A stretch of 64,000 nucleotides of DNA from a virus (taxonomy: Duplodnaviria; Caudoviricetes). Location of the stretch: IMG/VR virus record IMGVR_UViG_3300025410_000009. One strand, given 5' to 3'. The position numbers were made by a program, and so were the translations under genes. Below the pieces are notes generated by a model. The model was not told the DNA's origin. It saw only the letters and a list, made by a program, of their open reading frames with translations, and did not search any database. This document shows, piece by piece, positions 48,105 through 49,168 of this stretch (position 1 is the stretch's first letter; each line of letters starts with the position of its first letter).

Positions 48105-48944
48105 ATGGCTTCAAACCCCAACAATCCCTTGGCCAAACACTTCAGACAGCCAGCAATTTACCTTAAACTGCCCAGCGGCGGCACCTATTGGCCCGACGAT
48201 GCCATAAAGTTGCCCTTGAACGGCGAAGTTGCCATCTACCCAATGACCACCAAAGATGAAATCACACTAAAGACGCCAGACGCACTCATGAACGGTGCTG
48301 GTGTAATCAGTGTGATTCAAAGCTGCTGCCCTGATATCTTAGACGCTTGGCGCATGCCCAGTATTGATGTTGATGCTGTCATAATTGCCATTAGAATTGC
48401 CAGCTTTGGGCATGAGATGCCGTTCAACGCTAGATGCCCAGCATGCGACAACTTTGATGACTATGCTATCGATTTGCGTATGGTGTTAGACAACATTAGA
48501 ATGCCCAGTTACGATGATCCAGTTGCAGTTGACTCCCTAAAGATCAAACTGTATCCACAGCCGTATTTTAGTCTAAACAAAACCAATCAAGCTCAGTTTG
48601 AAGAACAAAAGCTATTACAAGCCATTGAAAACACCAGCATGGACGAGACTGAACGCAGCGTAATGATCAATGATCAAATGGCCAAAATTGTCAACATTGG
48701 GTTGCAAACACTGGTAGACAGCACCGAATACATCGAAACCGATGATGGCACACAGGTACGAGATAAAACTTTTATAAATGAATTCTATACAAATTCAAGT
48801 ACTACTGTCACAAAAGCAGTACAAGCCAAGCTAGCTAATTTGAACACAGAGGGTGCTGTCAAACCAGTACATGTCAATTGTGCCGAGTGCAGCAAACCGT
48901 TTGATATCCAAATCACGTTTGACTACGCAGCTTTTTTCGGTTAA
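48105..48944 (+). CDS. gp26: Baseplate hub assembly protein (T4 gp26-like)
   Basis: LKLPSGG, PMTTKDEITLKTPDALMNG, AIRIASFG and two CxxC motifs; GGAG SD. Confidence 0.75.
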   Translation: MASNPNNPLAKHFRQPAIYLKLPSGGTYWPDDAIKLPLNGEVAIYPMTTKDEITLKTPDALMNGAGVISVIQSCCPDILDAWRMPSIDVDAVIIAIRIASFGHEMPFNARCPACDNFDDYAIDLRMVLDNIRMPSYDDPVAVDSLKIKLYPQPYFSLNKTNQAQFEEQKLLQAIENTSMDETERSVMINDQMAKIVNIGLQTLVDSTEYIETDDGTQVRDKTFINEFYTNSSTTVTKAVQAKLANLNTEGAVKPVHVNCAECSKPFDIQITFDYAAFFG

Positions 48945-48949
48945 GGCTT

Positions 48950-49168
48950 TTGACTCTTGATAATGAGGGTATCGTCAAGCTAATTGAGGGATACGACAAA
49001 GAGTCAAAAGCCTTACGAGACGAAGCACTAAGACTCAGCTGGTACATGCGGGGTGGACTCACCTATGATGATGCCATGATGTTGAGTCATGGCGAACGTG
49101 AAATCATTGGCAAAATAATCAAAGACAACATCGAAGTTACCAAGAAAACTGGTGTTCCTTTCTTCTAA
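48950..49168 (+). CDS. gp51-like hub assembly catalyst / tail chaperone C-terminal part; probably reached by -1 frameshift
   Basis: 72 aa from TTG (LSWYMRGGLTYDDAMMLSHGERE); its frame is open back through T TTT TTC at 48932-48938. Confidence 0.62.
   Translation: MTLDNEGIVKLIEGYDKESKALRDEALRLSWYMRGGLTYDDAMMLSHGEREIIGKIIKDNIEVTKKTGVPFF

Follow-up and report, generated by a model that had tools for sequence, protein, structure and literature searches.

The gp26-like baseplate-hub gene of a T4-superfamily jumbo phage, known from the freshwater IMG/VR record IMGVR_UViG_3300025410_000009, very probably carries a programmed -1 ribosomal frameshift at its 3' end. We analysed a stretch of 64,000 nucleotides (nt) of this record, called the window in the following, to which all positions refer unless another genome is named. 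The observations that carry this reading are the anatomy of the site, its conservation in related phages, a covarying RNA stem, natural in-frame fusions of the two reading frames, and the collinearity of the computed long product with gp51 of T4-type phages. A frameshift at this place had been proposed before from the letters of the window and its list of open reading frames (ORFs), here termed the sequence-only reading; conservation of the slippery heptamer, -1 ORFs devoid of start codons, the covarying stem and the in-frame fusions now support that proposal. The site is made up of the following elements.

48105..48944, plus strand: gp26-like baseplate-hub gene, 0 frame, short form of 279 amino acids (aa), from the ORF list
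48920..48922, plus strand: TGA closing the -1 frame upstream
48932..48938, plus strand: slippery heptamer T TTT TTC, X XXY YYZ in the 0 frame, one sense codon 5' of the stop
48939..48944, plus strand: spacer GGTTAA, 6 nt, containing the 0-frame stop TAA at 48942-48944
48938..49168, plus strand: -1 frame extension, 76 codons from CGG at 48938 to the stop at 49166-49168
48950..48952, plus strand: TTG, sole candidate start for an independent downstream ORF of 72 aa, from the ORF list

The gp26-like gene has a Shine-Dalgarno (SD) sequence, GGAG at 48094-48097, 7 nt 5' of its ATG. Its protein matches PF12322 (T4_baseplate) over residues 35-278 with an E-value of 7.4e-14 (52.4 bits against a gathering cut-off of 24.5) and, among the PHROGs families, phrog_150 'baseplate hub' with E 1.1e-16. 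The ORF ends with GCT TTT TTC GGT TAA. From 48923 onwards the -1 frame is open as well; it passes through the heptamer and continues up to the stop at 49166-49168. Since the TGA at 48920-48922 closes this frame upstream, a change of frame is only possible within 19 nt, 48923-48941. The heptamer has the X XXY YYZ form of a -1 site, sits in the 0 frame and falls within the overlap of both open frames. Residues 1-278 followed by the -1 extension give a computed long form of 354 aa. An SD-like element upstream of the heptamer, as in dnaX, was not seen at the window site.

The end of the gp26-like gene, the in-frame heptamer and the -1 frame leading into the 72-aa ORF had been described in the same way by the sequence-only reading, which also noted that this ORF has nothing except a TTG start with a poorly spaced SD. 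Checked on the letters, all of this holds: the only SD-like bases ahead of TTG 48950 are AAGG at 48943-48946, 3 nt away. The string TTTTTTC occurs 9 times in the 64-kb window where 11 occurrences are expected, and by itself is not rarer than chance; the heptamer owes its significance to position and conservation, not to frequency. Contigs of three further runs reproduce the site without an indel and with 0 differences. Contigs of a related virus in runs X1 and X6 show only one match of at least 90%, namely 48918-48979 (62 nt, 8 differences). This stretch comprises the frameshift site and the 5' arm of the stem described below, which makes it the locally best-conserved DNA.

The sequence-only reading had named heptamer and -1 relation across homologous gene pairs as the test, and its outcome favours a frameshift. 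In a tblastn search of named phages, Atu_ph07, Sinorhizobium phage Phosso and jumbo phages of the RaK2/PA5oct/GAP32 type proved to have the gene (about 30% identity), and a scan of IMG/VR yielded 57 loci at 42-69% identity, of which 54 extend to the gene end and 3 are cut before it. The window, Atu_ph07, Phosso and the 54 loci form our set of 57 close relatives (30-69% protein identity). All 57 carry an in-frame xxT TTT TTC at the gene end and keep the -1 relation. The codon preceding the heptamer varies (AGT in 37 genes, AAT in 16, CAT in 2, GCT and CGT in one each), with its third base always T. Elsewhere in the 49 distinct genes of this set, Phe is encoded by TTT 286 times and by TTC 124 times, AGY, AAY and CAY codons end with T in 875 cases and with C in 742, and none of 13 other Phe-Phe pairs is written TTT TTC. 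The 0-frame stop follows the heptamer after one codon in 28 loci, two in 2, three in 1 and four in 26, and all three stop codons are used. The -1 frame, in turn, spans 76-77 codons in every close relative, one locus being cut by the contig end. In the loci L032, L034 and L052 it opens just 10 nt before the 0-frame stop, and the heptamer is thus essentially the sole place to shift.

The same signal extends to other T4-superfamily phages. It reads CGT TTT TTC GAT in RaK2, AGT TTT TTC AGA in PA5oct and AAT TTT TTC GTA in GAP32, each followed by a -1 ORF of 65-78 codons. In the cyanophages S-SSM7, S-RIM8 and P-SSM4 and in Vibrio phage nt-1 the heptamer precedes a small ORF named 'gp51 baseplate hub assembly catalyst', and in Aeromonas phage Aeh1, Stenotrophomonas phage Marzo, Rhizobium phage LG08 and Xanthomonas phage X1 an ORF that is unannotated or 'hypothetical'. 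IMG/VR relatives of the S-SSM7 gp26 gene possess the in-frame heptamer in 80 of 80 cases, with the stop one codon later in 79, and their -1 ORFs span 60-66 codons. Methylophilales phage Melnitz and Pelagibacter phage HTVC008M show the variant T TTT TTT directly followed by TAA; here, the variant takes the place of T TTT TTC plus one sense codon. Altogether, the arrangement recurs in more than 200 loci and in 15 named phages.

The peptide encoded in the -1 frame is conserved from its first residue (R-x-R-L-L), carries a W-x-M-R-G motif and ends with Phe-Phe. In an alignment of 40 extension sequences (A1), W35, M37, R38, G39 and F76 are invariant, and conservation in the -1 frame sets in at the heptamer, ahead of any start codon; in the window, no ATG or GTG is found in this frame before codon 37. 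Neither Pfam nor PHROGs holds a family matching the 72/76-aa ORF, at E-values up to 1. We also observe that Phe-Phe closes both predicted products, at 48936-48941 in the short form (which ends with Phe-Phe-Gly) and at 49160-49165 in the long form. Throughout alignment A1 the long form ends on an invariant Phe, preceded by another Phe in at least 90% of the sequences.

Downstream of the heptamer, the RNA folds into a long stem with these parts.

48942..48958, plus strand: 5' arm of the stem (conserved core 48945-48957; columns 23-39 of alignment A2), from minimum free energy (MFE) folding and covariation
48999..49015, plus strand: 3' arm of the stem (conserved core 49000-49012; columns 83-99 of A2), from MFE folding and covariation
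48969..48994, plus strand: small inner hairpin in the stem loop, from the window's own MFE structure

The 99 nt starting at the heptamer have a predicted folding energy of -35 kcal/mol (z -5.97), and none of 200 shuffled sequences is as stable. The conserved core of this 13-17 bp stem begins 6 nt past the heptamer. Covariation was counted on alignment A2, which consists of 43 distinct sequences. Within the helix, 72.5% of the cells can pair, compared to at most 55.7% when the 3' partners are slid, and double-sided changes occur in 13 of the 17 stem pairs; pair 30-92, for example, is C-G in 21 sequences and U-A in 16, and pair 33-89 is A-U in 20 and G-C in 17. None of 500 shuffles attains any of five covariation measures. 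Given the kinship of the sequences and the derivation of the helix from the fold of the window itself, these controls overstate independence, and the solid part of this evidence is the compensatory pairs. A few divergent loci have the same 5' arm with a partner further downstream. A stem is likewise predicted 5-6 nt past the heptamer in RaK2, GAP32 and PA5oct, and the cyanophage-type loci show a short hairpin at this place (mean MFE -11.3, shuffled -5.7). The weak stem TTGAC/GTCAA of the sequence-only reading is present in the window; the structure that matters, however, is the longer helix formed by 48942-48958 and 48999-49015.

Further evidence that both frames belong to one protein comes from phages in which they are joined. 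Searching 1.84 billion representative proteins with a profile of the extension gave 466 matches at E <= 0.001. About 20 of the best 150 of these are 319-351 aa long and carry the extension C-terminally, and all 20 fusion proteins that we fetched match PF12322. At the junction they have a single Phe, within the pattern x-F-R-x-[KR]-[LI]-[IL]. The spacing between the second Cys of a CxxC motif and the junction, and that between the junction and W-x-MRG, are the same as in the two window frames joined at the heptamer. The W-x-MRG motif led to 80 further IMG/VR loci: 73 show the heptamer together with a -1 ORF, and 7 are single long ORFs whose junction lacks a T run and consists of one TTT or TTC and then CGN or AGA. 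Where the frames are fused no slip is needed, and the T run and the fixed choice of codons are gone. An earlier word-index search for longer proteins bearing the extension had found none; as the profile search later did find them, that blank reflects a limit of sensitivity. For one natural fusion of a relative (P0054, not the window protein itself), an AlphaFold2 model from a 20-sequence alignment has a mean predicted local distance difference test score (pLDDT) of 90.2 and a predicted template modelling score (pTM) of 0.86. In this model the extension forms helices at 263-272, 276-305, 310-314 and 318-338 as part of one compact structure. A Foldseek search of an in-frame fusion model against the PDB gave no match at E <= 0.001, and the PDB sequence search none below E 0.75.

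The elements suggest the following course of translation. A ribosome arriving at U UUU UUC would hold tRNA-Phe on UUU in its P site and on UUC in its A site, while the 13-17 bp stem, about 6 nt downstream and thus at the spacing of established -1 frameshift sites, would hold it in place. Most ribosomes would stay in frame, add Gly and stop at TAA 48942, yielding the short form of 279 aa. A minority would slip back by one base, with both tRNAs re-pairing on UUU UUU, and would read CGG and 75 further codons to produce the 354-aa long form, with a conserved and presumably helical C-terminal domain.

The alternative that fares best beside a frameshift, in our judgement still an improbable one, is that two ordinary genes follow each other, with the 72-aa ORF translated from TTG 48950 or by termination-reinitiation after TAA 48942, and the T run merely coding for Phe-Phe. 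The observations that speak for it are gathered here, together with those that weigh against the frameshift. TTG 48950 lies 5 nt past the stop in the window, and a survey of starts in the 56 complete -1 ORFs of the close relatives found TTG at codon 5, as in the window, in 26 of them. Two more, Atu_ph07 and Phosso, have ATG at codon 2, overlapping the stop (ATGA). Of the 80 cyanophage-type loci, 51 carry ATG at -1 codon 4, and public records annotate small separate 'gp51' ORFs. With these TTG and ATG starts, some members of the family could translate the small ORF separately or by re-initiation. Pseudomonas phage Cygsa01 (positions 1790-1990 of its locus) is the sole one of 16 named phages without the heptamer; it reads AGC ATT TTC ACC TAA, and its small ORF begins with an ATG of its own that overlaps the stop (TAATG). 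The extension is therefore apparently able to work as a separate polypeptide, and the Cygsa01 lineage may have switched to separate translation. In addition, Phe-Phe is conserved as protein too (T4 gp26 ends with FFELL), which places part of the conservation at the amino-acid level. The loci are related, so that their counts are not independent events, and the 500-shuffle control of the stem contains no correction for the kinship of the A2 sequences. Finally, the slippage itself, its rate and the role of each form are inferred from the sequence rather than seen.

One argument against two genes is that many relatives offer no place to start. Among the 56 complete -1 ORFs, 27 contain no ATG, GTG or TTG between 3 codons ahead of the slip point and 14 codons past it, close to where the conserved peptide begins, and 13 have none throughout the first 30 codons; with half of the close relatives devoid of a start codon, separate initiation fails as the sole mechanism. 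The -1 peptide is moreover conserved from the heptamer on, before any start. Every lineage that keeps the overlap has the third base of the variable codon and both Phe codons fixed, whereas the in-frame fusions have just one Phe, encoded by either TTT or TTC. In addition, a covarying stem is placed at the spacing of a frameshift site, and the annotated starts of the small ORF disagree between records, giving lengths of 45, 57, 58 and 63 aa depending on the start chosen. Separate initiation or re-initiation may, nevertheless, take place in addition to frameshifting.

Transcriptional slippage, in which one extra U added by RNA polymerase within the T6 run would make some of the mRNA encode the fusion, appears very unlikely to us. 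The homopolymer run fits it, an inserted base would give the same long protein, and two phages have T7. On the other hand, six T are fewer than in the runs known to give efficient transcriptional slippage. The register of the run is fixed in the codon frame and the base after it is fixed as C or T, which are marks of ribosomal rather than polymerase slippage, as is the conserved stem 6 nt downstream. Chance or artefact, be it an assembly error in the T run or a decaying gene, can practically be dismissed: TTTTTTC is as frequent in the window as chance predicts, but the pattern recurs in the many loci and named phages given above and the contigs of the three further runs show no indels and 0 differences, which excludes an assembly error.

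If the frameshift takes place, its two products most likely correspond to gp26 (short form) and gp51 (long form) of T4-type phages. In T4, gp26 (208 aa) and gp51 (249 aa) both match PF12322, with E-values of 8.8e-64 and 3.9e-52, and are thus paralogues. T4 gp26 stops just past the Phe-Phe motif, and gp51 runs about 46 residues further. A 2010 review describes gp51 as essential, needed for hub assembly, absent from the virion and of unknown function at that time (Leiman et al. 2010, PMC3004832). A low slip rate would fit a protein that is required for hub assembly but absent from the particle, as gp51 is according to this review (PMC3004832).

The distribution of gene copies points in the same direction. 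The heptamer is absent from T4, KFS-EC (RB49-like), AM101, avDM3 and asfd_1h, in all of which gene 26 runs into gene 25 according to the translated frames. T4, KFS-EC, AM101 and avDM3 have a separate divergent gene of about 250 aa (gp51); the asfd_1h record carries no annotation. PF12322 is matched twice each in T4 and KFS-EC, and once each in Atu_ph07, RaK2, PA5oct, GAP32, Aeh1, S-SSM7, S-RIM8 and Cygsa01. These eight phages keep the extension just downstream, seven of them with the heptamer and Cygsa01 without. The 210-kb IMG/VR record from which the window is taken, about 60% complete, has one PF12322 match.

We computed the trans-frame products and compared them as profiles with hhalign, the gp51 family being represented by 13 members. 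The cyanophage-type fusion aligns with the gp51 family with a probability of 98.3% and E 1.4e-14 (residues 28-293 with 13-247), through the junction to the C-terminus, and the cyanophage extension alone matches gp51 residues 199-246 with E 4.2e-8. The fusion of the window group aligns with the cyanophage fusion (E 2.5e-13, 13-346 with 14-298) and, over its length, with the gp51 family (17-346 with 5-252), the latter with a probability of only 69% and E 4.5e-5. It speaks against the correspondence that the window-group extension taken alone has weak matches to the cyanophage extension (E 0.008) and to the gp51 family (E 0.086); both are collinear, and the gp51 C-terminus is the top match at E 0.086. 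Compared with the T4 gp51 sequence by itself, the extension profile matched best somewhere other than the C-terminus (E 0.022, probability 2%). We consider homology of the window extension to the gp51 tail as likely, not proven. The label 'gp51-like', which the sequence-only reading had given to the downstream ORF, turns out to be right in a deeper sense, as T4 gp51 is itself a PF12322 protein with a tail that matches the -1 ORF; for the tail, this match is significant in cyanophages and appears in the window group only in whole-length alignments.

Long-tailed phages are characterized by programmed -1 frameshifting in their tail assembly genes, with the G/GT pair of lambda as an example. T4 and its relatives are, to our knowledge, treated as lacking it. 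A more general reading, to which we assign about even chances, is that frameshifting could be the usual route to hub/tape-measure assembly factors outside the T-even core, i.e. in cyanophages, pelagiphage-like phages, Vibrio and Aeromonas 'schizo' T4 relatives and the RaK2/PA5oct/Atu_ph07 jumbo phages. T4 gp26 and gp51 would then be the two forms resolved into paralogues, gp51 the counterpart of the low-abundance frameshift product, and the pair the equivalent of G/GT in the T4 world. Should the frameshift site function as its sequence suggests, a large and ecologically dominant group of myoviruses, including marine cyanophages and many jumbo phages, uses the same logic with a different protein family, and T4 gp51 may be viewed, as a testable hypothesis, as the long form of gp26 that is needed in small amounts. 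Our literature search retrieved no description of a frameshift in gene 26/51; most subscription journals were outside its scope, so this does not prove that none has been published. There is also a consequence for annotation: none of the phage records examined contains a joined (ribosomal-slippage) coding sequence, the -1 ORF is missed in RaK2, PA5oct and Aeh1, and elsewhere it is annotated as free-standing with inconsistent starts, among them internal ATGs in GAP32 (58 aa) and S-RIM8 (45 aa).

Neighbours of the gp26-like gene in the window include genes for a portal, a prohead protease, a gp23-like capsid protein, two sheath paralogues, a gp46/47-like nuclease, a gp55-like late sigma factor, and gp5- and gp6-like baseplate proteins. 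A SegE-like ORF of the GIY-YIG homing endonuclease type (49604-50065, minus strand; PF19835 with E 7.7e-33, phrog_447) lies between the gp26-like gene and the gp46-like nuclease gene, a place occupied by small hypothetical genes in Atu_ph07. The roughly 430 nt between the end of the extension and this gene (49169-49603) contain no ORF matching a family, and a tRNA scan of the window, this interval included, found none. On the minus strand, the adjacent genes at 28785-30335 and 30351-32285 match the tail sheath family phrog_12249 (E 8e-53 and 8e-60) and look like tandem sheath paralogues. A further ORF on this strand, 9764-16618 (2284 aa), matches collagen-like and tail fibre families many times over, e.g., phrog_5073 in 10 stretches. 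One more neighbour is the following.

44936..48055, minus strand: tape-measure-like gene, 1039 aa, divergent neighbour of the gp26-like gene at a distance of 49 nt, from PHROGs

Its protein matches phrog_167 (E 4.3e-8) and phrog_794 (E 2.7e-6), both of them tail length tape measure families, and the same divergent tape-measure-like neighbour is found in RaK2, PA5oct and GAP32. In HTVC008M, tail tube, gp26, the small gp51, a hypothetical gene and a putative tape measure follow each other on one strand. The record of Acinetobacter phage AM101 labels both gp26 and gp51 as 'tape measure protein assembly chaperone'; our literature search, with the scope given above, found no paper supporting these labels.

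A comparison with known systems shows what is shared and what is not. T4 gp26 and gp51 resemble the window products in belonging to PF12322, in a short gp26 that ends past Phe-Phe and in a long gp51 whose tail probably corresponds to the -1 extension. They differ in being encoded by two divergent genes without a slippery heptamer, the corresponding T4 sequence being GAG TTC TTT GAG TTA CTA TAA, and the extension of the window group is about 20-30 residues longer than the gp51 tail. The small 'gp51' ORFs of cyanophages and other T4 relatives share position, -1 frame and preceding heptamer with the window; unlike the window extension, they are annotated as free-standing with differing starts, and they are shorter. 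In the dnaX gene of E. coli, a heptamer and a downstream stem-loop lead to two nested products, gamma and tau, from one gene; in contrast to the window, frameshifting there yields the shorter of the two products and is aided by an SD-like element upstream.

The closest functional parallel is provided by the tail assembly genes of long-tailed phages, in which Xu, Hendrix and Duda reportedly described a conserved -1 frameshift in 2004. In lambda G/GT and P2 E/E+E', a -1 slip near the end of the upstream frame results in nested short and long proteins. Proteins of the G/GT type act in tail assembly, are not thought to be parts of the virion, and their genes adjoin the tape-measure gene. The sequence-only reading had linked gp26/51 functionally to G/GT. 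As an analogy this is backed by the gene order, even though the tape-measure-like gene of the window is divergent and not downstream on the same strand; sequence and fold lend it no support. The window proteins belong to PF12322, a different protein family, and match no tail-assembly-chaperone family in Pfam or PHROGs. A VIA-align comparison over 48,161 chains gave a best Z of 7.0 with nothing except short helical matches, and the HK97 chaperone 2ob9_B (Z 6.2, 82 residues) ranks 14th among unrelated helical matches, within noise. Common to both systems are the X XXY YYZ -1 site and nested short and long products with a common N-terminus, which in the window are predicted from sequence signals. 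By analogy, the site thus seems to work like G/GT while not being a member of the G/GT family.

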